Of a DNA stretch of 64,000 nucleotides, positions 26,751 to 63,113 are shown piece by piece (positions within the stretch are counted from its first letter, which is position 1; each line of letters opens with the position of its first letter). The DNA is from Dipteris shenzhenensis. Taxonomy: Eukaryota. Made by a program: the position numbers and the translations under genes. The notes below the pieces were generated by a model that was given only the letters and a program-made list of their open reading frames with translations, made no database searches and was not told the DNA's origin. The stretch lies in assembly GCA_047967505.1 (NCBI GenBank), contig CM106538.1; one strand, 5' to 3'.

Positions 26751-28885
26751 TGTGACGCCAAAAATTGATATTTTTAATTTGGCATTAGTATTGTTTTCTT
26801 CTATGTTTGATAAGAGTTTGAGTATCAAGTGATAGCCTAGCGGCTCTCACTTATGTTTATTTTCTAAGATATTGTATGGGATTGAGAGGATGAGTGGAAT
26901 GGATCATTGTAAATACCATAGGTATGAATTATAAATACCTTGGTATGGGGTGAGAGTTATTTGTGTATGGGATATTATGGGGTTTTTTGAAAATAGGAAG
27001 AGAGTCATATAAAGAGGTGGGCTCATGTCCATGTGTTCCAATAATATAAGAGAGGCCACATGCCAAGCGTGTGGAAGGCATGTGGAGGAGTGTGGAGTCA
27101 AGAGGAATCCCTCTAGAATTCCCATGTGGAATAAGGAGGATGTGGACATATGGAAAAGAGAGGGTCCCTATGGGCTCCATGTGAAGAGACTCTTGACATT
27201 CTCAATATTTTAAGAGTCTTGAGCATCTTTTGATGGGACACATGGCAAGAGTAATCAAAAAGGACATGGATGGTGACATATGGGCTTATGTGATTGATGG
27301 GGAAAAGAATCTACAGGTAGCAATTGTAAATGGGTGAATGAGGGTGACAAAATCTCTATAAAAGGAAGGCAGCAATTGTAAATGGGTGAACGAGGGTGAC
27401 AAAATCTCTATAAAAGGAGCCTTCCTCTCCCTTGTTCATAAATCTCTTCCACCATTAGGCCTCATGTTGCTGTAGCTCTAGTCTCCTCAAGCCTCTTCCA
27501 TGAGCCTTCTCTTCCCCTTGTAGATATTCTCTTATGTAGAGTCTTGAGTCCATCTCTCTCTAGTTTATTCTCTCTCTATGAGTAGTCTTGGCACTTCCGC
27601 TCCCTCTTGTATGTATGAAACCTCTTCTTCTCCCTTGTGTTTGTAGTGTATTTGAGTGGTCTTACTCTCATGGCAATAAAAATCACTTTTTATCATTTTC
27701 CTTGAGTCTCCATTCTTATGTTCTTTTCTCTCTCTATTTAAGTCTCTAATGTAGTACTTGTTTGGCCGCTCACTGTGCACACATGGTCCATCCGTTTCCC
27801 GAGCCACCATGCAAGCTTCTTCCTCTCTTTTAAAATAATTCTAGGGGTATTGGATCTTTGATAATTGTGGAGCCTTGATGGAGTAGTTTGCTTAGGCGAA
27901 ATCTGCATGGGCAGATGGTAGTTAATATAGTAGTTAGACCCCCTGTTAGTATTTGGCCTATAGCTTTCTCCTTGGTGGTCCGATTTCAATGAAACTTATA
28001 TCAGCGTGAAGCTCTCTTTAAGGGTCTCCCTCCCATGTAATGAGTTTCTTGCATTGGGTCCAGGACGAGAAGTTATGAGTCTCTATGTATAGCTATTTAT
28101 TTCTATGGTAGTTTTTACCCCCTTTCAATAAACTATCCATATCTCTTCAACTAATTATCTGTTTTCAATGAAACTTATATCAGCGTGAAGATCTCTTTAA
28201 GGTTCTCCTCTCATGTCATTAGTTTCTTGCATTGGGTCCAAGTCAAGAAGTTATAAGTCTCTTTGTATGACTATTTATTTCTATGGCAGTTTTTACCCCC
28301 TTTCAGTAAACTGTCCATATCTCTCCAACCGGTTATCTGTTTTCAATGAAATTTATATAAGTACGAAGCTCACTTCAAGGCACATCTTGTATGTACTTTA
28401 GTTTTTTATATCAGTTTTTTGGTGGAAGTTATAGACCTCTATGTTTTCTAGTAGTTTGTAGAATGTTTTTGAGCCATTTCTAGAGGCTTCTCTGAAGGAG
28501 GTGCCATGTTTCCCTGGAATTTACCCATCCAGCCAAATCAGCCCCTTCAAGCCCCTAGATATATATTAATTCATGTCATGTTGAGCCGAAAGATCTTCTT
28601 CCAACAATGCATCGCTCTTCTCTTTGGCGCCAACCGGCTTGGTGAGATAATGGCCTCTGCGGATCCTTTTCTTCTCCCGATGCTGGACTACAATGTCACT
28701 TGGGATGTTACCATATTCATTCTCCTATAAGGGAAGCAAGGAGAACGATATGTTGTGGTTTTCTTCGCATGAAAATATTTTCTTCATCTCTCTTTGCAAG
28801 TGATAAGGGTCTCTATTATTAAAATTGGGAAGAGCAGGAAGCTAAGAGGTGCATGAAGTTTCATTACCCCCAACTTCATGTCACA
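26751..28885 (+). repeat. 5' LTR of F
   Basis: TGTGAC...GTCACA, colinear with 34243-36301. Confidence 0.93.
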
Positions 28886-34242: not shown

Positions 34243-36301
34243 TGTGACGCCAAAAATTAATATTTTTTCTTTGGCATTAGTATTGTTTTCTTCTATGTTT
34301 GATAAGAGTTTGAGTATCAAGTGATAGCCTAGCGGCTCTCACTTATTTCTATTTTTTAAGATATTGTATGGGATTGAGAGGATGAGTAGAATGGATCATT
34401 GTAAATACCATAGGTATGAATTATAAATACCTTGGTATGGGGTGAGAGTTATTTGTGTATGGGATATTATGGGTTTTTTAGAAAATAGGAAGAGTGAGTC
34501 ATATAAAGAGGTGGGCTCATGTCCATGTGTTCCGTTAATATAAGAGAGGCCACATGCCAAGCATGTGGAAGGCATGTAGAGGAGTGTGGAGTCAAGAGGA
34601 ATCCTTCTAGAATTCCCATGTGGAATAAGGAGGACGTGGACATATGGTAAAGAGAGGGTCCCTATGGGCTCCATGTGGGGAGACTCTTGACTTTCTCAAT
34701 ATTTTAAGAGTCTTGAGCATCTTTTGATGGGACACATGGCAAGAGTACCCAAAAAGGACATGGATGGTGAGATATGGGCTTATGTGATTGATGGGGAAAA
34801 TAATCTACAAGCAGCAAGGAGGGTGACAAAATCTCTATAAAAGGAGCCTTCCTCTCCCTTGTTCATAAATCTCTTCCACCATTAGGCCTCATGTTGCTGT
34901 AGCTCTAGTCTCCTCGAGCCTTCTCTCCCTCTTGTAGATATTCTCTTATGTAGACTCTTGAGTCCATCTCTCTCTAGTTTATTCTCTCTCTATGAGTAGT
35001 CTTGGATGTTCCCCTCCCTCTTGTATGTATGAAACGTCTTCTTCTCCCATGTATTTGTAGTATATTTGAGTGGAATCTTACTCTCATGGCAATGAAAGTC
35101 ACTTTTTATCATTTTCCTTGAGTCTCCATTCCTATGTTTTTTTCTCTCTCTATTTAAGTCTCTAAAGTAGTTCTTGTTCAGCCACTCACTGTGCACACAT
35201 GGTCCATCCGTTTCTCAAGCCACCATACAAACTTCTTCCTCTCTTTTAGGCTAATTCTAGGGGTATTGGATCGTTGATAATTGTCGAGCCTTGAGGGAGT
35301 AGTTTTCTTATGCGAAATCTGCATGGGCAGATGGTAGTTAATATAGCAGTTAGACCCCCTATTAGTATTTGGCCTATAACTTTCTCCTCGATGGTGTGAT
35401 TTCAATGAAACTTATATCATGCGAAGCTCTCTTTAAGATCTCCCTCTGATGTAATGAGTTTCTTGCATTGGGTCCAGGATGAGAAGTTATGAGTCTGTAT
35501 GTATGACTGTTTATTTCTATGGCAGTTTTTACCCCCTTTTTGTAAACTGTCCATATCTCTTTAACCGATTATCTGTTTTCAATGAAACTTATATCAATGT
35601 TAAGCTCTCTGTAAGGGTCTTTCTCTTGTGTAATTAGTTTCTTACATTGGGTCTAAGACAAGAAGTTATGAGTCTCTGTGTATGACTATTTATTTCTATG
35701 GTAGTTTTTACCCCCTTTCAGTAAACTATCCATATCTCTTCAACTAGTTATCTATTTTCAACGAAACTTATATCAGTACAAAGCTCACTTCAAGGCACAT
35801 CCTTGTATTTACTTTAATTTTTTATATCAATTCTTTGGTGGAAGTTTTAGACCTTTGTGTTTTTTAACAGTTTGTAGAATGAATCTGAGCCATTTCTAGA
35901 GGCTTCTATGAAGGAGGTGCCATGATTTCCCAGAATTTACCCATCCAGCCAAATAAGCCCCTTGAAGCCCCTAGATATATATAAGTTCATGTCATGTTGA
36001 GCCGAAAGATCTTCTTCCAACAATGCATCACTCTTCTCTTTGGCGCCGACCAGCTTGGTGAGATAATGGCCTCTGCGGATCCTTTTCTTCTCCCGATGTT
36101 GGACTACAATGTCACTTGGGATGTTACCATATTCATTCTCCTTTAAGGGAAGCAAGGAGAAAGATATTTTGTGGTTTTCTTTGCATGAAAATATTTTCTT
36201 CATCTCTCTTTGCAAGTGATAAGGGTCTCTATTATTAAGATTGGGAAGAGCAGGAAGCTAAGAGGTGCGTGAAGTTTCATTACCCCCATTTGCATGTCAC
36301 A
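34243..36301 (+). repeat. 3' LTR of F
   Basis: Follows poly-G PPT; TGTGAC...GTCACA. Confidence 0.93.
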
Positions 36302-47865: not shown

Positions 47866-50800
47866 TGTGTGTGTGTGTGTGTGTTACCTAATAGAACAAT
47901 AAAATCTATATGTCCCTTACTAGAATCATTTGGCTCATAATTACATAAATGCCCTTTCATTTGTGCAACTTCAATCCCATGTAATTCATTCAGCCAATGC
48001 TATAGTTCATATCAGTAAATCAAAAAATGCTTAAGGAAATCCTCAAGTCAAAGTTCATTATACTGTATTAACGCCATTTCAGCCCAACTATTATCAACAG
48101 AATTCTGCAAAAAGAAATTTATGTTTGTCATATATATATATCTTAATCAAAATTGCTAATTTGGCTAATCATACTGTATATAACTGTCTCCTTGTCCTGT
48201 TTTTGTATTACAGGCATTACAGTGGATAATCTTCCCCTTACTCATGTATATCGAGCAGGGGCTCCCCCACAAAAATAATCATAAGGGGTGTCAAGATGGA
48301 ATCAAAAGTCGGCTCCATTTGATAGTCACTACTGTCTTTTGGAAAATCGTGGAGTGGACCGGCGGTCTTATAAGCCAGTGTGTCAGTATCCTCCTTTTTT
48401 TTTCAACCAAAACACCGAGATAAGTAGCTGGACTCACCTACATCCATCCACAAGCATCGCATGTTAGGACATGAATTCAATGCAATGTGGGACTATAGGC
48501 TTGAAGGCCCAACCACGGTTGTTATCCTTGTCAAACTCAGCAATTTCTAAAAATGGAGCAATAGTAGTGGTTACTAAGGGTGGCCAAGGTTATAGCTGAG
48601 AAATGGTGTTGCAATAAGATGAGTGTGATTAACAGAGTAGCAGTGAGTTCTTTAGTATTATTAGTCCTCAGAAATTTTACAGAAAAGTTCTCATGAAATG
48701 TGCTAAGTTAGAGATAGACATTATCCATAAGTGTAACAGTAGCAGTAGTAAATTATAGAATTACAGCAAGTGTCTCAATTAAATGGGAGACCATTTTATT
48801 TCTCATGTATTCAATGTAAACAGATATATGTAGCTGGTCTCCTAGTCCAAGAAAGCTTAATCCATACACAAGTGTATCATCAGTTGTCTCAAATTGTTTT
48901 AAGAGCTTGCCTATCCCTAGTTAACTTGGGGAATGAGGGACTCGTCTTATCCATTACTCTCTAAGTCTCATGCATTTGAGAGTGTATACAATTTGGTTTT
49001 TTCCTAGTAAAGCAAATACCCCTTCATATACTACTAAAACAAGTATTCAAAGGGGTTGTTCGAGTACTCCTAGTGTCTGCAGTATCAGATCCGTGTAACT
49101 CAATTGTATTGAGTGAGTCATGTGCTAAAACCGCTGAGTAGAGATGCTACATGCTTCTTCTAAAATAGTAACAACATCTTGAGGCTAATAGGTGGCGTTG
49201 TAGGTATCGAGCTGCTACCCAGCTTTCTGAGCCATGCTGTTCTTGCAACTCCACTTTAAATAGTCGTGGAGAGCAACTCCCTTTTGGAGCTCGGGCTTAC
49301 AAGCTGACCCTATACTCATCAAGGGAGTATAGCATCGAGATCCCGGGCTTTAGGGTTATGCATCTGGTATTGGGCTCCTCCTCGTTGCCCACCATAGTGA
49401 TGGCCATAGTTTTTTGGGCTCAGGCATATATAGCGAACCTGGATGTGGGTTTAAGGGGTACAGTTCCATTGCTCCAACCCAATAATGTATCCTCGTGTTC
49501 AAGTGAACAATCAACATGTAATCTCACTCCCATGGTGTCTAGGGAGCTTGGTGTTTGGTGATAATCTCTTTACACTATCTATCCTTCGTATATAATTGAA
49601 ACAAATCAATACAACAAAGTGCGCAGGGCGTTCAAAGTTTCATGAGTTTTTATATATTTCCTAGTTACTCACCTCTATTGCGAGCAAGCAGCTTCCAAAA
49701 GTATGCGTAACCAACTCACGTAAACGTTGATTTTGGATGCATGCAACAAACTGCAGGTAAATGTAAGTGGCACGTAGAAAGAAATCGAACTCCCAAGACC
49801 GAGAAGGTTCATTTCTACCCATTGGCACTTTGCAAACAAGTGTTGCAAAATCCTTTGGTTGCTGAATCTCTTCTGTTCCATTGTGTGTGGAGTTTCTGTC
49901 GTCAACCCTACAGTCCAGGAGTTGAACGTGGCAGGTCATTAGCGTATGGAGCCTCCCAAGTCATCAGCTCATCGAGTCTCCTCGGTCATCAGCTCATGGA
50001 GCCTCCCGAGCTCCCTTTGCTTCTCCTTATTGCTATGCGAGATAAGAGTCAATTACGGATCGTTTGTCAGTGTATTAGGAATGCCAGATACCTGTCTGTA
50101 TGTCACCCCTCCTAGAGAGAGGTGCATATTGCTGAGGAGCCATGTGTTTATTGCAATCAGTTCTTGTTTTGATGCTGAGGTGGTATGTCGTGGTCTATTG
50201 TCCCACCAATCAGCTTCTTTTCTTTTTCGAGGGAAAATGAACTCTTTTTCTAAAAAAGAGAAGGCAAGTGAAATCACTAGTTCCATCACTTAAATGGGGC
50301 CTGTTTCTCCTTCCAGGGGGATGTTCTCAAAACATTTGCCAATGTCAGCTGAGAATATGCATGTTATGGAGTCTCACAGGTTTATTTTTTTATCATATAT
50401 TGATTTGACTATCCAAAAGGCTTTTGAAGGGATGTTCGCTTTTGAAGGGATGTTCAGATCGTCCTTGATTGCTTCCTGTAGGCTTGCACTAGCAACCATA
50501 AGGGGTTCTAGGCATGCTTGTAGTGAAGATGCTATGAATCTGGCTATTTCTAAGAAGACACATGCATGGGCATTTGTTATCCACCTAAAGGAGTTTTTGT
50601 GTGCTTTGTATGTGCACATCAAGTAGGGCAAGAGTGTTTCTCAATAAGTGGACATATCTAGAAGGATAAGATGCCCTTTGCTAGTCGATCAAGGGAGTTC
50701 TCATGTTCGATTTGGATAAAGTCTGGGCTGTGTAGCCTCTCATATGCTAGGGAGAAGGCCAGTTTTGTGCATATGAATGCTGGTGTGGATGCTGATTTAT

Positions 50801-53061
50801 CTATGGAGTTGACTAGGACATTGGATACAATCTGGTATGCACCTCTAGAGTGTATGAAAAGGTTAAGTTTTCCACTCTTGTAAGTGATTTGGATGCAATC
50901 AAGTGCTCCAAGAAGCTTCTTGCAAATGTTTCAAAAGGTCCCTTTAGTTTTTGAAATATATTCTCTCTTGGGATATGGTTCAAACCTTTTTGCAGCTCAT
51001 TGCAAAGCTGTTCATTTTTAACTAGGCCTATATCCAGTGTTACCACGTGGTTCCAGTTGTTGTCTCTAAAGGCTACCATGTCAACTTCATGGCAATGGCA
51101 AGATATGTTCCCTTTATCCCTAAAGTATAACCATGGCTTCATTAATTTTGCTCCCAAGTTGTCCTTAAATGACTAGCTAATAGACACATTCATTATGAAT
51201 GTTTAAGGCATTGGTAAATTGTGGTCCAAAAAGAATTCAAAAAGCCGCTTTTTTATTGAAAAATAGTCAAGAAGGGGGTTATCAAATTCCAAGGTTATGA
51301 ATCCTTTATTTTCTTTCGAGCGATGAGTGATTAAAGTAAGCTCTCCACGAGGAAGGTAAACAAAGCTTTTTAGGGGGGAGTTGCATACCTGCAAAACATC
51401 AATCTTTTTCATCATAGAGAAGGTGCTTGACTGGTAACTTTACATTGCTATCTTGTGTAAATGACATTGTCTTTCCACCCCTCATAATCTTTGAAGGCCC
51501 TACTTGAGATTCTCTAGTGTCTAGGTGGACTGATCTTTCTGCACTGTTCTGCCATTTAATTTGCTTTGGGGTATGTGATTGGATTGGTTGTGATTTTCTG
51601 GCTCTCCCATAGCCCATTCCACCACGTGACTGAAATCTACCCTATTTCAAGGAGCTGGTTGCTCTATGGCTACTTGTGTCTTGCCCTCTTACAATTCTTT
51701 CACCATAAGAACAGATCCCTGGGAGGGGTGTGGGAGCAAGGGTAAGGAAGGGCTCTTCTCTAAATTATGTACTGCTGTAAGCATCAGCTCTCTCATGTAC
51801 ATGAATGTAATGGAGGCTTTCCCAAATAATATCATATCGGGGGTCTTCATAAATAATAGAAAGGAGTTAAATGCTGCCTTCAATGGTCCGCCAGGATAGA
51901 AGGTAACCAAGTTATTGACGATGAACCAAATGGCATGGTCGAACTAGAGTGGTTGGGCTTTGCAATCCATTATTTCTTCATTGCATCTGCATTTTATATA
52001 TGGCCTGCCCATGTTAAAGATGTCATTGACGTACTTCAGAGTTCTCCTTTTTGCTTCATTAATCCTACTCTTGCATCTACCAAAGAATCCTACCAGGGAT
52101 GGGCATCTGTCGGATGCAAACATAGCCATGGGAAAGAAGCTGGCCAATGTGTGGCTATATACAATGTGGATATCAAAATTCTGAGCTGCATGTTTTGCTT
52201 CCGATTTGATACTCGTAGTGGTCTGTATTAAATCTATGAGGAACAACCAAGTGTCAATGTGGAATGGGGCCAAGAGATTCATATCATGCACATCCCATAC
52301 TTTGTTATCATGTGCCATAAGCTCCGCTTCTAGCACTCTGAGTGGGAATAATGGGTTTGTATATGTGGGGCAAGAGCTTTTCCTAGTATTTGTCATAGGT
52401 ATCACCATCAGATCTGAGAAGATCTTGTCTTGATCATCTTGAGAAAGTCCCTCCATATTGCAGAAACTATGTTGGAGGGTAGAAAGCAGATTTTGTGGAG
52501 GAATAAAGCATTTGAGACCCATATTTTCTGTAGACACCGGGAGGACTAGGGGGGCAGATTGAAATTGAGGAAGAGACTCCTCATAGTGTTTGGGGATGAT
52601 TCCAGGAAGTCCAAGAGGGCCTTGTTGTCTTCATGGATGATTTGATCCAATGATGCATGGAGTTTCTTTATGAGTGCTATTGACTCCTCTATTTTCCCTT
52701 TGCTGAGTATCAAGACTTTGCACCAGTCATTGAAAGACAGCTGCATTATTAGAAGTCTCCCTAAGTCTGGGTGATCCTTTAGCTCTTGTGTGTCCAACCA
52801 AATAATGGTCTCATGGAGCCCCCTTTGATGGAACATGGTCATGATAGATTGGCAAGCTTGAGATGGGGCTGGTAATGGATCCTCGTAACCAACTTTGGTG
52901 AGGTCCGTGAACCAAACGGGTGCCTGGGGGAGAGAGAGAAACAAACCCATTAAGTTAGGATCTTTGTAATCCTGACGAGCGTATTACGATGTGTGTTGCC
53001 TAATAGAACAATAAAATCTATATCTCCCTTACTACAATCCTTTGAATCATAATTACATAAA
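47866..53061 (-). mobile_element. Penelope-like retroelement (Chlamys/Naiad-type) with pseudo-LTR-like direct repeat
   Basis: ~72-bp direct repeat 47878-47949 / 52990-53061, (CA)n at 3' end, PLE-type RT ORF inside. Confidence 0.65.
50075..52950 (-). pseudogene. Penelope-like reverse transcriptase ORF, 3'-truncated
   Basis: CHC..HVVTLDIGLVKNEQL..KGLNHIP, IDKSASTPAFIC, PYLMCTYKAHKNSFRWI, ADIGKCFENIP, YRQVSGIP; motif C absent. Confidence 0.8.
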
Positions 53062-53660
53062 ACACACTATTCAAAATTTTTGGACTTGTGTAAAGTCCAA
53101 TTTGAGAAATGGACTAAAAAACAGTCCAAAATTTTTGAATATACTAGTAATGTTGTTTTTTGAACTAGATTTGACAATTCCAAACAATAGATTTGGTGAT
53201 TAAGTACTAAGAACATAAATGCATAACCAAATCTCTTACAGAGGTGGTCTACATAAACATCTTCATAACTTCTTATGAATTGAGCTACTATCACCTAAGA
53301 ACATCAATAGATGACCAATTCTCTTAGAAAGGTGGTGTAAATAAACACCTTTATGTATAAGTGGTGTGCACACACCTTTATGACCATTTCTTTTAGAAAG
53401 GTGGTGTACATAAACCCCTTACAAAGGTAGTGTACATAGATCCTTTTATGTGTAAGTGGTGTACATATACGCCTCACTTGGTATTAAAAAACACCCTTAA
53501 CTATAAAAATACATTGACATAAAGTTTAAAATACACCATTAAGTATAAAATGGACCTCATAAACAATCTTTATACACAATAATGAGAGTAAAGAAATAAA
53601 AAAAGTAGCTAACTTTTTATTAGATATTTGCTTTACATAGAAGTTCAAAACTTGCGAAGT

Positions 53661-56600
53661 TCAAAACTTGCGAAGTTCAAAACTTGTGATTACAAAGCCG
53701 TCAACCATCATGTTCCTCAGTACAAATGTCCTCAATGCTAGGCCCTTGACTACCAGGTTCCTGACTAATAGGCTGCTCTGCTCTAAGACAATACCAATGC
53801 TCTCAATGCACCCTTGACTACCAGGGTCTTGACTAATAGGCTGCTCTAAGATTGGAGTCTCAGTAGCAAGGTCCTCAGTAGTTTGCTCTTCAGTTCCAAG
53901 CACTTGACTAGTAGGCTGCTCTAAAGTCTCATGTCCCAGTTCTTGGTGAGTAGGATCTTGGCTACTAGGCTCCTAACTAGTAGGTTGCTCTGGAGTCTGT
54001 AAGATCATGGTTGAAGAACCATCTATGCCTCCTGGTAACTCCTCCTGGTCATGCTTTGCCTCATCCATACCTTCTTTGGGTAAGGCTTCCTTGCTTGATC
54101 CACTTGCATGTCCTTCACCCAAGATCAAAGGTGCCTTCCTCACTCATAATTTCAAGGGAAGTGCTTGCACCTCTTTAGCCTTACCTTTTCCTATGACGTG
54201 CCATACTACTACTTCTTGTTGCTGCGAGCCTTCCCATATGATGAGTTGAACCTCCTTGACTCTAGTTAACAATTGATCACCCTTATTATTTGTGCGAATT
54301 TCTTCTTACTGTAAGTCATCGGATGCAGAGCTTTCATCCTCATCATCACCTAAGCTAGAATCATCACCCTCAGACTCACTACCCTCGTCTTCGACATTTT
54401 CCTCACTACCCTCTTCTTTGACATTTTCCTCTTCAAAGAAGGTAGTGCAACTGCAATATGTGTCAAAGAACTCAATCTGATGGGGGGTATCAATGACATT
54501 TACATTTCTACGTTGGTGTAGCAATTTCTCAACAGCAAAACCCATTCGATACAATGCTACTTCCCATCCATCATTCAGTAAATTATTTGTCATTTCTAGT
54601 ATCACATTAGGATCCATCGGCTTTCGGTAATCCACCATTGCTGCATCAAGTTTAACCTTATTGTCCTCAAAGTAATGAAGCTCGAGAGTCCTTAAAGGAA
54701 TTTTGATTAGATTGCCACCACCCCTGGATAAGTAGTACATCAAGAAAGGCTACAAGACTTGAATGGCAGTGCCTTCTACAGTCATATGATTGCGTAGGAC
54801 TATACCATGGTATACTTTTGAAAGTAAATACCCAAATGCAGATGTCAAACTTGCATACAAGGCATCCCTTTGTGATTCTATCATGAACAGGACCAACGTT
54901 GATCTTTTCTTATCTGCCATAGGACCTTCTATGATAAACCGCACAAGTTCAACTATCTGTTACACTGCAAGGTCTTGCAATTCATCTATGAAAAATACAC
55001 ATGGCTTCTCCCAAGCATGACCGCTTATTGTTATGAAATGTATGTATCAATGCCATTGATGTGTGCGAAATTTGTATCATTCTCTGATAGCAAGATATCA
55101 TAGGAGAAGCTGAATGGAGAACCATCATCTAAACCACCAATTGCTCTACCTTGGGCAGTGGATTGCAAGGCCTTTTTCTTGATGTCCATATATTCTGTCT
55201 CAATAACCTTTGGCATTTTAACTCTTAGATCCATTGTTGGTGTGGCATCTGCATCCATTGAAGCCAATCACTTTCTAGCCCATGTCTTATCAAGGAGTTG
55301 ACCTAGGCTAAGTGCTTTCTTCTTATCCACATTAATTGACTTGCCAACTAACTCATCATCAGATTTCAATAAAAACAATAGTGTCGAGAGAGCAGCCTCA
55401 CTTTGAATCATTCGGGTGACCACTTCATCCAAGTTGCTATGGTTGCTCTTCTTTCCAAAGAAGCAGTCACCGCTTAGGATCTTCTTGCATACTTCTTCTG
55501 TTATTGCATCTGGAACAAACCTTAATGCTCTCCACCAAACAATACACATCGGTTTCATTATTTCTTTCCTCTGAGTTGCACTGTGCTCTGGTGCCTCAAA
55601 GGATATCTTTCCTGTTTCATATGGTTGGCAAACATCCACCATGCTCTAAAACACTGAGTCCTTGCGGAAGACAATGCAAGTAACATCCCTGTCTCTTACA
55701 ACGGTGGTGTTCAGATCCTTTGCCTCAACCTTATTACTTGGTATGCCTTGCGTATTACTTTACAACACCTTTCAAGCATCTATAGAATGGTGTGCTCTTT
55801 GCCATGTACTCAGATGTAGGTCTCTTGCCCTTCACTGTTTGTGGCTTTCCATAGCCCACCCATAACTCCCTTGCCTTTATCAGGATCTCAAAAAGAGAAG
55901 AGCTATTTTTCAACCTAAATGGAGTAGAATTTAGCCTTTTTGATTCTAGAATGAACTTCGAGTCATCGTTAAATATGCATACATGACAAATGACCCATTG
56001 AAACTTTTCCATCCACTCAATCTATGGCAAGTTTCCTTTTCTTCCCTCATCAAAGGCGATCCTGCAAGCTTCACAAAAGTGTTGCCCATCAATGGGCTCA
56101 AACCTGCATCGTTCCAAGAATCTATTCTTTGCCAGCATGTATCTCTTCTCGATGTCAGTCCCATATTGGCTTTGGTACAAAAACTCTCCACGAACAAAGT
56201 CACTCCTTCTAAGGTTCTCAAAAGCATCAAGAAAGTCCATGCGCTTTTGAAATGTGACATCAGGCAATGTAGGATCATCTTCTTGAAGTCTCTTAAACAC
56301 CATAGGATGAAGAGTCATATTAGTGGCAACTGGAGTTCTTGTTTTCCTCGTATCTTCATACAATTTGCATGCAAATGTCTTATCTAGCTTTCTTTGATTT
56401 ATGAACAATGAAGCTCAATCAATAAGCATTGTGGCCATGCGGAATTGTGAAAATCCCTAAATATACCCCTCATCCTCTGGAGGATTTAAGTCTACCACAC
56501 TTATAGAAAAGTCTGCGAGACTTGTATCTTCTTCTTGCGGATCCTCCTGATCATCACTATTCAATTTTTCGCCTGGTTTTAAATAACCTACACTTGAACG

Positions 56601-57191
56601 ATCTGTGCATGGAGTAGGAGTTATTTTTGCTCTCTTTTTGGGAATAGTTGTGGAACTTGAATCTGCTCCACGATCACTCCTTGTTCCTATAGTTGTAGTA
56701 GTCGATGGTGTAGGTACAGTTGGAGATACTGTAGTTACTACTATAGATATTGTAGTTACTCTTGTCAGAGATACTGTAGTTATCACCACATATATTGGCA
56801 GAACAACTTGAGGGTTACATGTTATAGATGGCATACTTACTACTGCTGAAGGTACAACACCACCACTTGGAAATGCATCCCACATTTTCTTCAATGCTTC
56901 CAAGGCACTAAGTAATTCTTGGGATCCCTCAATTAAATTTGGTAAGGGCTTCAAGAAGTGCTTGTAGACCACATCATCATTCTTCCCTTTGCACACAACT
57001 TCTATCAAATTGTTTTCTTTAATGTTAATGGTTGAGACCATGCCACCATTTCTTACTGCCTGTGGAGAATATTTCACGCTTGACACATTCTTGGCAGTGA
57101 TCACAAAAAAATACTTTGATTTGCGCTTCATAAAATACCAAGCATGTTCAAGATATTTAAAAGACACCTTGGAACCAAAACTCAAAGCCAT
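53661..57191 (-). pseudogene. Large decayed ORF (~1,170 codons) with ParB/DGQHR-like motifs, possible degenerate methyltransferase-like region and acidic tail
   Basis: Eight consecutive minus-strand ORFs, mostly one frame; NQRKLD (~56390), FEPIDGQH (DGQH within 56079-56093), KPMDP..NLLNDGWEV..RRNVNVID. Confidence 0.6.
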
Positions 57192-57779
57192 AGTTCTCTG
57201 CAAAGCAATCAAAAACAAAAAATGAGAATTACAATGATTTTCAAACTCAAAATATTAAAAAAATTGCTAATTAAATATTTAAATATTAAAAATTAAAAAT
57301 TAATTAAAATTCCAAAAGATTAAATATATTTAAAAAAATATTTTTATATTGCGAGATACTATTTTTAATCTAATATTTTTCTACATAAATAATTTAATTA
57401 AAAATATTTTATAAACATAGATAAAAGAATTTAATTTAATTTTCCTAAAATTTTATTTAATTTTTTAAAATGTTTATTTTATTTATTTATATATATATCT
57501 ATATATTTAAAATGTAATTTATTTTTTCTTTAAAAAAAATATTTTTTAAATTTTATTTATTTATTTAATTTTAATTTTTAAATTAAATTAAATTTATTAA
57601 TTTAATTTTTAATTTTTTAAATTATTTTAAATTATTTATTTATATATTAAAAATTTAATTTAATTTTTTTGCATTTTATTTATTTATTTATTTTTTTAAA
57701 AATTAAATTACTTAAATTAATTTTTTTCTTTTTCTTTTTTTTTAAAGGAGCCCCAAAGGGCCTCCACTTAAGGAGAGGA

Positions 57780-58236
57780 GGGGATTAACCCCCCATAACC
57801 TGTTGCGCACGCAACAGGTTAGGGGGGATTAATCCCCCCGCCTCCCCGTCCCCCCGCCCTCCCCTCCCCTCCCCTCCTCTCCCGTCTGCCTGCCCCTCCC
57901 CGCCCCTCCCCTCTCCTCCCGCCTCCCTGCCTCTCCCCTCCCCTCCCCTCCCCTCTCGTCTCCCCTCCCCGCCCCTCCCGTCTCCCCTCTCCTCCCGCCT
58001 CCCTGCCCCGCCCTCCTGTCCTCCTCCCCACCCTCCCCTCCCCTCCCCTCCCCTCCCCTCCCCTCCCCTCTTGCCTCCCCGCCCCTCTCCCTCCTCGGGG
58101 AGGGGAGGTGGGAGGGGAGGGAAGGGGAGGGTAGGGAGGCAGGGGGATTAACCCCCCCTAACCTGTTGCGTGCACAACAGGTTAGGGGGGGTTAATCCCC
58201 TCGTGCACGCAATAGGTTAGGGGGGGTTAATCCCCC
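57780..58236. repeat. ~60-bp palindromes (two full, one partial)
   Basis: GGGATTAACCCCCC(A)TAACCTGTTGCG-CA-CGCAACAGGTTAGGGGGGATTAATCCC at 57781; copies at 58142 and 58202. Confidence 0.9.
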
Positions 58237-59420
58237 CGCCCTCCCCTCTCCTCCTGCCTCCCCGCCCCTCCCTCCCGTCCTCCTTCTCTCCTCGCCCTGC
58301 CCCTCCCCTCCCCTCCCCTCCCACCCCTCCTCGCCCCTCCCCTCTCGCCTCCCCTCCTCGCTCCTCGTCCCGCCCCTCCCCTCCCCTCCTCTCCTCGCCC
58401 TGCCCCTCCCCTCCCCTCTCGCCCCTCCTCGTCTCTCCCCTCTTGCCTCCCCTCCCCACTCCCTGCCCCTCCCCCCTCCCGTCCTCCTGTCCCTGCTCCC
58501 CGCCCTCCCGTCCTCCTCCCCTCCTTGCTCCGCCCCTCCCCTCCTACCTCCCCACCCTGCCTCGCCCCGCCCCTCCCCTCCCGCCTCCCCGCCCTGCCTC
58601 GCCCCGCCCCTCCCCTCCTACACCTCGCCGCCCTTTCCCTCCCACCCCTCCCTGCCCCTCCCCTCCCACCCCTCCCCGCCCTTCCCCTCTCGCCTCCCCT
58701 CCCTGCTCCCCGCCCCACCCCTCCCCTCCCCTCCCCTCCCCACCCTGCCGCTCCTCCCCTCCCGCCCCTCCCCTCTCGCCTCCCCTCCTCGCTCCCCACC
58801 CCTCCCCCCTCTCGCTTGCCCCTCCTCCTCTCCTCTCTCCTCTTCCTGCCCCTCCCCTCCCCTCCCCTCTCCCCTCTCCTACCCTCACCTCCCCCTCACC
58901 GCTCGGAGGGGGAAGCGGGAGAAGAGGGGAAGGAAAGTGGGAGGAGAGGGGAAGGGAGGGGAGGGGAGGGAGGAAGGGAGGGGAAGCAAGAGAAGAGGGA
59001 AGGGGAAGGGGGAGGAGAGGGGAGGTGAGGGGAGGAGAGGGGAGAGGGGAGGGGAGGGGGGGGGGAAGCGGGAGTAGAGGGAAGGGGAGGGGGAAGGAAG
59101 GAAGGGAGGGGAGGGGAGGGAGGGGAAGGGGAAGTGGGAGGAGGGAGAGGACAGGGGAAGGGAGGGGGAAGGGAGGGGAAGGGAGGAGAGGGGAAGGGGG
59201 AAGCGAAAGGAGGGAGGGGGGAGGGTAGAGGGGAAGCGGGAGGAGAGGGGAAGGGAGGAGAGAGAGGAAGCGGGAGGAGAGGGGATGGGAAGCGGGAGGA
59301 GGTGGGAAGGGAGGGGAGGGAGAAGAGGGGTTGGGAAGCGGGAGGAGAGGGAAAGGGAGGGGAGGGAGGAGAGGGGAAGGCGGGGAGGGAGGGAGTACCT
59401 GGGTGGGGAGGTGGTGGAGG
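58237..59420. repeat. C-rich then G-rich (CCCCT/AGGGG) imperfect foldback
   Basis: Strand switch centred at ~58900. Confidence 0.9.
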
Positions 59421-59454
59421 AGCTCCAGAAAGTTGTGAGAGAGAATGAGTAGAG

Positions 59455-59542
59455 TTTTATAGGAAAGTGGTAGCTTTCAGGTCAAGTAAGCTTTTTTTAG
59501 TTTTTAAGGTTTTTTTAGTTCTTTTAGGTTCACTATAAGTAG
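59455..59542. promoter_or_regulatory. Putative bidirectional promoter
   Basis: CCTATAAAA (minus, 59463-59455) and CTATAAG (plus, 59533), each followed by a CT-rich leader and a splice donor (59398 minus, 59653 plus). Confidence 0.5.
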
Positions 59543-61096
59543 AACGTTTTTCATCCTCTCTTTCATTCAAAGTTCATTCTTTCACACTCCACGCTTCTCT
59601 CCTCTCATCAACCTGTTGCAAGATTCTCAAAATTTTCAAAATGTTGTAAGAGGTGAGTTCATTTCCAACCTATTGCGTATGCAAGAACTTCTAAGAATCA
59701 AGTTTTTGTAAATTTGAGTTTTTTTTCAAATCCGATTCTTTTCTCAAAAACTTATTGCGTACGCGACTTCAAAAAACCATCTTTTGCATTAAATCTTTTT
59801 TTCCACAAATTTCCCTCTTTACCTCAAACTCTCACAACCTATTGTCACAAATTTCTCTCAATCTCAAACTCTCCCAGCCTATTGGGCACGTAATAATTTT
59901 TCAAAATAAATAAATTAGAAAACAATCTATTACAAATTTCTCTCTCAACCTTAAAACCACTCAAACCTCCCTACCTATTGTGTGTACGCAAGAACTTCAA
60001 AACAAAATTTCACCATAAATCTCTCCAAAAACTCTTCCCATGACACTTTATTAATATTTATAATATTCTTAATCCATAATATAATAAATTTTTATTAACT
60101 AATATTAAAATATAATTTTGCTAAAAATATATATTTTTAATCTATAAATTAATATAAATATTATATAAATATATATATAAATACATTAATTAAAAAAATA
60201 TAACAATGAAAATATTTTTGAATGGGAGGTCTTCTAGCATATGTGCTTTATATAATACTTATGCTTAAAACAATGAAGAATTAGTGAATATATTAGTAAG
60301 GTAGTCCTTAATATGAAAAATCTCTATAATATTATGTATTTGTAAGGTAGTTCTTAATATGAAAAATCTCTACAATATTCTTCTTGCTATTAACTAGATA
60401 TTAAATTTTAGTTTTAATAAAAATATACATTATTAACTTAAAAACTAATATAAATATAATGTAATTATTATATAAATTTATATAAATATATAAATTATTA
60501 ATATTATACATTAATAACATTTAAAATTATATATATTATATACTAATAACCTTCAAATTTCAAAAAGGTAGTCAATCAAAGAATTGAATTAATTTAAAAA
60601 ATAAGAAAATATTAAAATTTACACAAGTGCTTTTAGCATGTATGCTTTTCTTCCATGTGTATAATACTTGTTAGTCGAAGAATGAAGAATTAGATAATGT
60701 ATTTGTAAGGTAGGTATTTAAAACCATAGAATCTGAAAGAGGTTTAGCAAACTTGCTTATCTTTGTTACAATATGTAATACTTTGCAAAAGCCTTAAACT
60801 TTGTTTAAGGCTTTGCACAAAACTACAGTATCATTGAATCCATATCATTTTTCTACCTTAGCAACCACCAGATATCCATGATATGAATCCATGATATGGA
60901 ATACATATTTCTTATGAATATTTATTATCACATACTTCTTCATTTCTTCTGATACACCATGTAGCATGAATGTAAGAAAATATGAATCGGTGTGCTTTTA
61001 GCCTATGTGCTTATTCCTAATAAGTAGGATACTTTAACTAGGTAGACTTATAATTACTTAAAGTAAAGCCTTTGCAAAGGATCGTACCTAGTATTG

Positions 61097-62400
61097 GATA
61101 TATCCAACCTGTTGCACAAATCAAGAATTTTCTTGATTTGTGCAACAGATTGGATATACGGTTGTTTGAATAAACTTTAAACTATTAATACCAAAACATC
61201 TTAACCACCGTAAATCCTAAACTTTAAACATTTAATTCCTAAACCCTAAACCCTAAATCCTAAACTCCTAAATGATAAATCCTAAACCCTAAATCCTAAA
61301 TCCTAAACCCTAAACTCTAAATCCTAAACCCTAAATCCTAAATTCTAAACCCTAAACCCTAACCCTAATCCCTAATCCTCAAATACAACCAAAATTTAAT
61401 GAAATTTTTTGATTTGTGCAACAAGTTGGATATATCTCCCAACCTGTTGCTTGAGCAATAGGTTAGGGGATATATCCAACTTGTTGCACAAATCAAAAAA
61501 ATTGCACAAATCAGGAATTTTCTTGATTTGTGCAACAAATTGGATATACGGTTGGGGATGCACCCCCAACCTGTTACTTGAGCAACAGGTTGGGGGATAT
61601 ATCCAACCTGTTGCACAAATCAAGAAAATTACACAAATCAAGGATTTTCTTGATTTGTACAACAGATTGGATATACGATTGGGGGTGCACCCCTAACCTA
61701 TTACTTGAGCAACAGGTTGGGGGATATATCGAACCTGTTCCACAAGTCAAGAATTTTCTTAATTTGTGCAACAGATTGGATTGAGCAACAAGTTGGGGGA
61801 TATATCCAACCTGTTGCACAAATCAAGAAAATTCCTTAATTTGTGCAACAAATTGGATATACCTCCCAACCTGTTGCAAGAGGTTGGGGGTGCACCCCCA
61901 ACCTGTTGCTTGAGCAACAGGTTGGGAGATATTCAACCTATTGCACAAATCAATAATTTTCTTGATTTGTGGAATAGATTGGATATATCTCCCAAGTTGT
62001 CGCTCAAGCAATAGGTTGGGGGATATATCCAACTTATTCTACAAGTCAAGAATTTTCTTGATTTGTGCAACAGGTTGATATACCCCCCAACCTGTTAATC
62101 AATATATCCAACCTGTTCCACAAGTCAAGAATTTTCTTGATTTGTGCAACAGGTTGGATATATCCCCTAACCTGTTGCTCAATCCAACCTGTTGCACAAA
62201 TCAAGAAAATTCTTAACTTGTGGAATAGGTTGGATATATCTCCTAACCTATTGCTCAAGCAACAGGTTGGGGATGCACCCCCAACCATATATCCAATCTG
62301 TTGCACAAATCAAGAAAATTCTTGATTTGTGCAACAGGTTGGATATATCCCCCAACCTGTTGATATATCCAACCTGTTGCACAAATCAAAAAAATTCATT
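61097..62400. repeat. Array of alternating-orientation CCAACCTGTTGC motifs with palindromic spacers
   Basis: Spacers GATATATC, GGTGCACC, TTGA, ACAAATCAAGAATTTTCTTGATTTGT. Confidence 0.92.
61171..61436. repeat. Left arm of inverted repeat with degenerate (CCCTAAA)n
   Basis: Reverse complement of 62362-62579. Confidence 0.9.
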
Positions 62401-62596
62401 AAATTTTGGTTGTATTTTAGGGTTAGGGTTTAGGGTTTAGGATTTAGGATTTAGCACTTAGGATTTAGAGTTTAGGGTTTAGGATTTATGGTCTAGGAGT
62501 TTATGGTTTAGGAATTAAATGTTTAAAGTTTAGGATTTATGGTGGTTAAGATGTTTTGGTATTAATTGTTTAAAGTTTAGGATGTAGGGTTTAGGT
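62362..62596. repeat. Right arm of inverted repeat with degenerate (TTTAGGG)n
   Basis: Reverse complement of 61171-61436. Confidence 0.9.
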
Positions 62597-62708
62597 TTAA
62601 TGCCTTCTCTGCTAGTTTTGATATAAAAGTTATTAAGTAATAATAAGCTCAATGATTATTTATTGTGTCTTTTTTTGAGTTACTAATCTATTTTTGTACA
62701 TAAAACAG

Positions 62709-63113
62709 GTATTCATGCTAACAGAGGGTATGAATGTGGCGTTATATAAGAAGAATAAAGTGGTGGCTTTTGGACGAATTCATAGTCTTGATCCTATGAA
62801 TGTTTGTCATTTCCAACATTGTGGTGAGAGAAGATGTGTAGTGATAATAACCAACGTTGTAAATCCTGAAGTACATTTAAAATATCCACATGGAGTCTTT
62901 GAAACATTGTGAGATATCTTACAATGTGACATATTTGATATGCAAGCACACAGAATGCTCTGGGACCAAGATGAAATTATTCCAAAGACATACTTTCAAG
63001 ATATCAAGAAAACTTATTTTGAGGGGGAAAAAGTAGAGATGTTATCTTGCTCTGGAGAAGTTTTAGCAATTGGCAACTTTGATGCTTTGTGGAGTGAGGT
63101 AGCAATCCTCTAA
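62709..63113 (+). pseudogene. Tnp1/En-Spm (CACTA TnpA-associated)-like domain fragment
   Basis: VVAFGRIHSLDPMNVCH..RCVVIITNVVNPEVHLKYPHGVFETL*D..MLW; start of a second repeat VEMLSCSGEVLAIG; CAG acceptor at 62708. Confidence 0.6.

Follow-up and report, generated by a model that had tools for sequence, protein, structure and literature searches.

Arrays of a palindromic site beside a decayed DGQH-family gene in Dipteris shenzhenensis: a possible land-plant variant of an algal transposon module

Here we describe a locus in a 64,000-nucleotide stretch of contig CM106538.1 of Dipteris shenzhenensis (assembly GCA_047967505.1; this whole stretch is hereafter the window), in which arrays of a palindromic site, AACCTGTTGC, adjoin a minus-strand pseudogene of a rare protein family that we refer to as DGQH. 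The explanation that we favour, tentatively and with slightly less than even confidence, draws on sequence and analogy: the locus may be a decayed land-plant variant of a module of algal transposons, in which a ParB-like accessory protein is combined with an array of its own palindromic sites. The copy would be an inactive remnant of part of a large DNA transposon of plants, or else of a locus derived from one. An accessory protein of ~1,100 residues, with a divergent ParB/Srx-type (DGQHR-like) domain at its core, would have been the product of the main gene, and the non-coding DNA upstream of that gene, with its arrays of inverted CCAACCTGTTGC half-sites, would hold the protein's own binding sites.

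The arrays, first pointed out in an annotation of the window made from the sequence alone (the first-pass annotation), are real and stand well above chance: AACCTGTTGC was matched 41 times with at most one mismatch, vs 4.33 ± 2.19 times in 100 shuffles (maximum 10). All 20 exact copies, and 38 of the 41 matches, fall within 57797–62380, and the other ~59 kb of the window holds three one-mismatch matches and no cluster. Most copies form inverted pairs, with start-to-start distances recurring at 14, 36 and 23 nt (nine pairs at 14, nine at 36, three rows of which are offset or degenerate, one at 37 and two at 54). The short palindrome reads CCCCCAACCTGTTGC-TTGA-GCAACAGGTTGGGGG, while the long one has a 26-nt spacer that is itself palindromic, both with CCAACCTGTTGC arms, and periods of 76 and 127 are found in the dense block at 61.4–62.25 kb (Tandem Repeats Finder). 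A separate left cluster lies 600–1,000 bp upstream of the minus-strand ATG and has its own spacers (GCAC/GTGC) and flanks. The common 10-mer arm is thus found in four flank and spacer contexts (57.8–58.2 kb, 59.6 kb, and the long and the short palindromes of 61.1–62.4 kb), and its retention across all four is more than one tandem amplification would yield.

The main rival explanation, which we consider unlikely, is a chance neighbourhood of independent repeats: a foldback-type repeat or satellite would have come to lie between a DGQH pseudogene and a CACTA fragment, neither of them related to it, among nested dead repeats. The window is pieced together from decayed retroelements and a single copy of the locus was seen, both of which suit such a history, as does the 61.1–62.6 kb segment, which is self-contained and bracketed by inverted telomere-like tracts, as would be the case for a foldback insertion. 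These telomere-like arms and their neighbouring unique sequence form an inverted repeat of ~85% complementarity, and the segment as a whole is one large imperfect foldback. One such insertion would, however, be insufficient, because palindromes of the same 10-mer also occur at 57797–58218, and further copies in the putative 59.6-kb leader, with other flanks; the lack of motif clusters in the rest of the window likewise counts against this rival.

The gene beside the arrays is dead. From the ATG at 57191 a single frame extends to 55755 with three internal stops, which in alignment fall on W/Y, R and S/R of relatives, and further downstream frame shifts and many stops are encountered. The frame change near 55757–55645 could be a short intron, judged from the GT...AG strings there. 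When the window was translated in six frames, six of the 1557 resulting pieces were matched by a profile built from eight members of a distant branch of the family (see below); all six are minus-strand pieces and follow the order of the profile (E = 3.2e-8, 3.4e-8, 4.8e-5, 0.011, 1.1 and 5.4): the N-terminal 'EKHGWWI'-type domain was matched at 0.011, the core twice at 3e-8 and the C-terminal block at 4.8e-5, and the two intermediate matches are weak, yet collinear with the rest. Similarly, for 19 of 20 fetched proteins the minus strand of 55761–56555 was the sole place in the window assigned by tblastn. No Pfam family was matched by five open reading frame (ORF) pieces of the gene. This collinearity along the locus marks the gene as a once full-length representative, now decayed, of a real family of proteins of ~1,100 residues. 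The ParB/DGQH-like gene of the first-pass annotation thus belongs to a conserved family, though the annotation had missed that this copy is broken, and the ParB/Srx-like signals of its core are weak.

The family to which it belongs consists of rare, eukaryote-like proteins without a Pfam model. A phmmer search with the read-through N-terminal half (P0001) against 1.84 billion representatives returned only 15 proteins at E ≤ 1e-3, seven of them plant-type fragments of 87–177 residues (43–55% identity) and the remainder a more divergent set, drawn from metagenome or run assemblies, that contains P0010 (1097 residues). With P0010 as the query of a word-based search, further proteins of 784, 683 and 1271 residues were found. 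The sole relative with a named source comes from a lycophyte, Diphasiastrum complanatum, where it is listed as a hypothetical protein. Members of the distant branch (P0010, P0019, P0020, P0021 and P0013) are apparently intact at 500–1271 residues, have long acidic tails and lack a Pfam domain, and the longer relatives fill much of their short contigs (e.g. 1097 residues on a 6.2-kb contig). A profile search for longer relatives recovered P0019 alone, and profile searches with reduced alignments against contigs of JGI metagenomes, IMG/VR and GTDB genomes yielded no relative. No tblastn match at E ≤ 10 was obtained for P0010 against phages or for P0021 against plasmids, and an ESM Atlas search with the 128-residue DGQH ORF and a 65-residue Tnp1-like ORF (see below) gave scores of at most 0.86, to unrelated bacterial clusters only.

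Profile libraries detected no 2-oxoglutarate (2OG) oxygenase, N4/N6 methyltransferase or other enzymatic domain in P0010 or in 19 members of the family. The 'LPP' and 'vvVl(E/D)' strings in a predicted alpha/beta region of P0010 and P0021 bear what we take to be a likeness to N6/N4 methyltransferase motifs, one without model support that we do not claim. The full-length AlphaFold2 model of P0010 (predicted local distance difference test, pLDDT, 41) is too poor to be of use, and a VIA search with it matched a low-confidence helical stretch only.

What the core of the protein might be is suggested by the order of its motifs, N(Q/H)R, (V/I)DGQH and SxxxN, present in nine of nine, nine of 12 and 13 of 14 aligned sequences, respectively. 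According to the excerpted text of PMC4619093, the hallmarks of the DGQHR domain are a QR pair, the DGQHR pentapeptide itself and FxxxN, and the domain is significantly similar to DUF262, itself placed in the ParB-like superfamily. The same order of QR, DGQH and xxxN is thus shared with the DGQHR/DUF262 branch (DndB, GmrS) as that excerpt defines it. In an AlphaFold2 model of the window's own domain (217 residues, 19-row alignment, pLDDT 71) DGQH is predicted to lie between a strand and a helix, and the model of P0010 has the same secondary-structure order around DGQH (pLDDT 70–88), from an alignment largely shared with that of the window model. When the window model was used in an exhaustive VIA search, most rows covered the C-terminal helical hairpin alone, and the best matches spanning the domain, the ParB-like PadC and sulfiredoxin, are weak signals of a putative ParB/Srx-like fold. 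Unlike members of the DGQHR branch, the DGQH proteins have ~87 residues and a helical insert between QR and DGQH and are matched by no hidden Markov model; that branch comprises prokaryotic defence proteins, whereas the DGQH family looks eukaryotic and transposon-associated.

A number of results weigh against a ParB-like accessory protein borne by a transposon, and we gather them here. The signature arginine of DGQHR is replaced by I, F or V and FxxxN appears as SxxxN; with the arginine lost, the NTP-dependent chemistry of ParB, Srx and GmrS is not to be assumed. None of 19 members was matched at E ≤ 10 by ParB, DndB/DGQHR or DUF262 models (Pfam, NCBIfam, PADLOC and PHROGs), searches of PDB sequences with the domain profile and the full-family profile returned nothing relevant, and Foldseek against PDB, like VIA over Foldseek's list, returned helical-hairpin noise only. 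The functional links are drawn from one broken copy. The sole link to CACTA elements is a weak one, a sub-threshold match to PF03017 (see below). No DDE transposase of the TnpD/Tnp2 type was found in the ORFs scanned (sets of five pieces and of three, 10 of the 20 ORFs in 38–53.7 kb that reach 90 residues, and the flanks), and a search for terminal inverted repeats (TIRs) between 52.5–53.8 kb and 63.1–64.0 kb gave no convincing pair, the best being 13 nt (E = 0.014) and unrelated to CACTA; a single CACTATTC at 53065 has no partner. Here our searches agree with the first-pass annotation, which had likewise seen neither termini nor a catalytic transposase. As the window ends 0.9 kb beyond the Tnp1-like ORF, the ends of the element may lie outside it. 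With the motif order and the models weighed against the profile and structure searches, we regard a ParB/Srx-type, DGQHR-like origin of the core as somewhat likelier than not, though not established.

The plus-strand ORF on the far side of the arrays is probably, from its sequence, a decayed Tnp1-like domain. Its first 65 residues match PF03017 (TNP1/EN/SPM) at E = 0.016 and 15.5 bits; when the in-frame TGA is read as X the match rises to 18.3 bits (E = 0.002) and covers profile positions 7–65 of 66, which remains below the curated cut-off of 21. The 'Tnp1-like' label of the first-pass annotation therefore has a family match behind it, under the cut-off and in an ORF that is broken. En/Spm TnpA binds reiterated short motifs, both direct and inverted, and it can be asked whether classical CACTA logic would suffice: the reiterated AACCTGTTGC would form the array, subterminal or internal, to which the plus-strand Tnp1/TnpA-like protein binds, and the DGQH gene would be a passive captured or neighbouring gene unconnected with the sites. 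That PF03017 is the only family matched by the ORF, and that one exact motif copy lies within the putative plus-strand leader, would fit. We nevertheless hold this reading to be quite unlikely, since the match is sub-threshold and the ORF has no homologue among proteins of 72–231 residues, since neither a Tnp2/TnpD transposase nor CACTA termini were found in the scanned ORFs and flanks, and since the arrays are internal, kilobases long and away from any recognisable element end.

In a further alternative the DGQH proteins would not be accessory but would mobilise an undescribed element themselves, with the palindromes as their recognition or processing sites, a reading that we entertain because nuclease activity is documented for some ParB/Srx proteins (excerpted text of PMC4619093). 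It would also suit the large share of their contigs taken up by the longer relatives, and scans of the window ORFs found no other conserved gene beside DGQH. No catalytic motif was identified, however, the DGQHR arginine is lost, and neither termini nor target-site duplications are in evidence, and we consider this reading very improbable. More broadly, it is possible, if on balance doubtful, that the DGQH proteins make up an unnamed transposon-borne family of DGQHR/ParB-Srx descent, perhaps green-lineage-wide, that recognises kilobase arrays of its own sites.

The first-pass annotation had also proposed that the two genes are transcribed divergently, from back-to-back TATA boxes and through long 5′ introns. 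The two TATA-like boxes are a candidate bidirectional promoter, as read from the sequence. On the minus strand a GT is present at 59398 and a TTTGCAG ending at 57198, six nt ahead of the ATG at 57191; on the plus strand there are a GTGAGT at 59653 and a CAG at 62706–62708 ahead of an ATG at 62715. As far as positions go, boxes and splice-like strings are where the annotation had placed them; all are short consensus strings, and the introns that they would delimit are putative. The left cluster is separated from the promoter-like region by a low-complexity tract of ~1.5 kb, (CCCCT)n-like and then (GGGGA)n-like, in which G runs are concentrated on one strand in each half and the GC fraction is 0.61 vs ~0.40 around it. 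The features of the locus are collected in Table 1.

Table 1. Features of the DGQH locus, in window coordinates.
Feature	Position	Strand	Description	Basis
'DGQH' family pseudogene	53661..57191	-	~1,100 codons	profile matches, tblastn, stops at conserved positions
DGQH pseudogene, N-terminal domain	57191-56800	-		
DGQH pseudogene, QR...DGQH...SxxxN core	56474-55758	-		
DGQH pseudogene, IVWWR block	55645-55271	-		
DGQH pseudogene, C-terminal alpha/beta block and acidic tail	54749-54306	-	tail to 53661	
Left AACCTGTTGC cluster	57797..58218		two palindromes with 4-nt spacers, within GGGGATTAA...CCCC flanks, and one half-site	inverted-repeat and motif search
Low-complexity tract	57833..59392		C/T-rich 57833-58894, then G/A-rich 58913-59392; halves mutually complementary	
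Two outward-facing TATA-like boxes	59455..59542		CCTATAAAA on minus strand, ~59456-59464; CTATAAGTA on plus strand, ~59533-59541	read from sequence
Motif copies at plus-strand putative leader/start of putative intron	59610..59990	+	one exact, several degenerate	
Dense palindrome array	61096..62400		long (~64 bp, 26-nt spacer) alternating with short (~34 bp, 4-nt spacer) palindromes, all CCAACCTGTTGC-armed	
Telomere-like (CCCTAAA)n array	61207..61375		left arm of inverted pair bracketing the palindrome array	
Telomere-like (TTTAGGG)n array	62416..62543		right arm of the same inverted pair	
Broken ORF with sub-threshold TNP1/EN/SPM (PF03017) domain	62715..63113	+	in-frame TGA at 62910	

Accessory genes of the kind that we propose have recently been described in algae. 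In the red alga Bostrychia moritziana, according to the excerpted text of a preprint (bioRxiv 10.1101/2025.02.11.637652), an accessory gene named PAG3 is borne by giant Plavaka elements, which belong to the EnSpm/CACTA superfamily. Its product combines a 2OG oxygenase domain with a domain homologous to ParB at the N terminus, inverted repeats in tandem arrays adjoin the gene, and most copies are degenerate. Compared by description only, the DGQH locus resembles PAG3 in its large protein, its putatively ParB-related domain, the inverted-repeat arrays that adjoin the gene and the degeneracy of the copy, while a link to the CACTA superfamily is here suggested by the weak Tnp1-like ORF. Unlike PAG3, the DGQH protein has no detectable 2OG oxygenase, its relation to ParB is invisible to profile libraries, neither transposase nor element ends were seen in the window, and the host is a plant, with a named relative from a lycophyte, rather than a red alga.

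In Ectocarpus, the element Sola1-1_Ec32 carries, on the strand opposite its transposase, a gene for a 1104-residue protein with ParB-like and N4/N6 DNA methyltransferase parts, which is proposed to act on the very transposon that encodes it, by binding and modifying it (excerpted text of PMC12477816). The DGQH relatives of 1097 and 1271 residues are of similar length, again by description only. Unlike Sola1, whose element belongs to another superfamily, the DGQH proteins gave no match to a methyltransferase model, and the excerpt on Sola1 makes no mention of site arrays. In an intact DGQH copy, protein dimers would occupy the palindromes and, once bound, could either regulate the divergent promoter or bring about anti-silencing or self-marking of the element, by modifying its chromatin or DNA themselves or by recruiting an activity that does so (cf. 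the proposal for PAG3).

With the proposals for PAG3 and Sola1 in print, the mechanism suggested by the first-pass annotation, a cargo gene of the ParB family with its own binding-site array, is already a published hypothesis for algae, and to speak of an undescribed element was an overstatement. What holds is that full-text literature searches found no report of a ParB-like accessory gene beside arrays in land plants, and none of the DGQH family; for the motif itself they returned primer matches only. An older parallel is the F plasmid centromere sopC, where tandem units, each with a short inverted repeat, adjoin the gene for the binding protein SopB. The DGQH locus shares with it the repeat arrays beside the gene and, putatively, the binding of palindromes. 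Unlike in sopC/SopB, a ParA partner is not present, and a role in segregation is implausible for a chromosomal plant repeat.

Several other features of the window were noted. Just 3′ of the DGQH pseudogene, at 53243–53470, six direct copies of a GGTGGTGTACATAAAC-like 16-mer occur within 230 bp; together with the CACTATTC mentioned above they recall the subterminal repeats of DNA transposons, and a matching other end was not found. Directly downstream of the pseudogene, at 51944–52983 on the minus strand, are overlapping open frames of 228 and 145 codons without a Pfam family (a 14-bit hint of a GRF zinc ribbon only), which could be a further gene of the DGQH unit. No part of 53–64 kb has a second copy elsewhere in the window except for a 72-bp direct repeat (47878–47949 and 52990–53061, 92% identity), which was ruled out as an insertion boundary, the flanks being unrelated on both sides in both copies. 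In its overall character the window resembles a large plant genome rich in repeats. In a survey of sequencing runs, five DNA runs contained 5–7% of the sampled words, and no RNA run was among those listed. The long ORFs of the window are, as read from their translations, fragments of long terminal repeat (LTR) retroelements (gag, protease, reverse transcriptase and integrase). A 2.1-kb direct repeat of 89% identity (26751–28885 and 34243–36301) surrounds gag-, protease- and reverse transcriptase-like ORFs and marks a moderately old LTR retrotransposon; 0–36 kb is filled with additional fragments of nested retroelements. Telomere-like (CCCTAAA)n tracts occur internally in the window.

Transposons that bind and modify their own DNA are rare: the VANDAL elements of eudicots are named as the only ones known to encode a protein that does both (excerpted text of bioRxiv 10.1101/2025.02.11.637652), and ParB-like accessory genes beside arrays have been described only recently, and only in algae. 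As the copy described here is dead, its worth is as a pointer to a family, not as a working system; both the 12-bp site and the protein family are well enough defined for tests of binding and anti-silencing. Should the DGQH proteins be a transposon-borne family of the kind outlined above, they would represent in land plants what the ParB-like accessory genes are in algae, would add a further case of a transposon marking or protecting its own DNA, and would extend this self-marking strategy to large, repeat-rich plant genomes.

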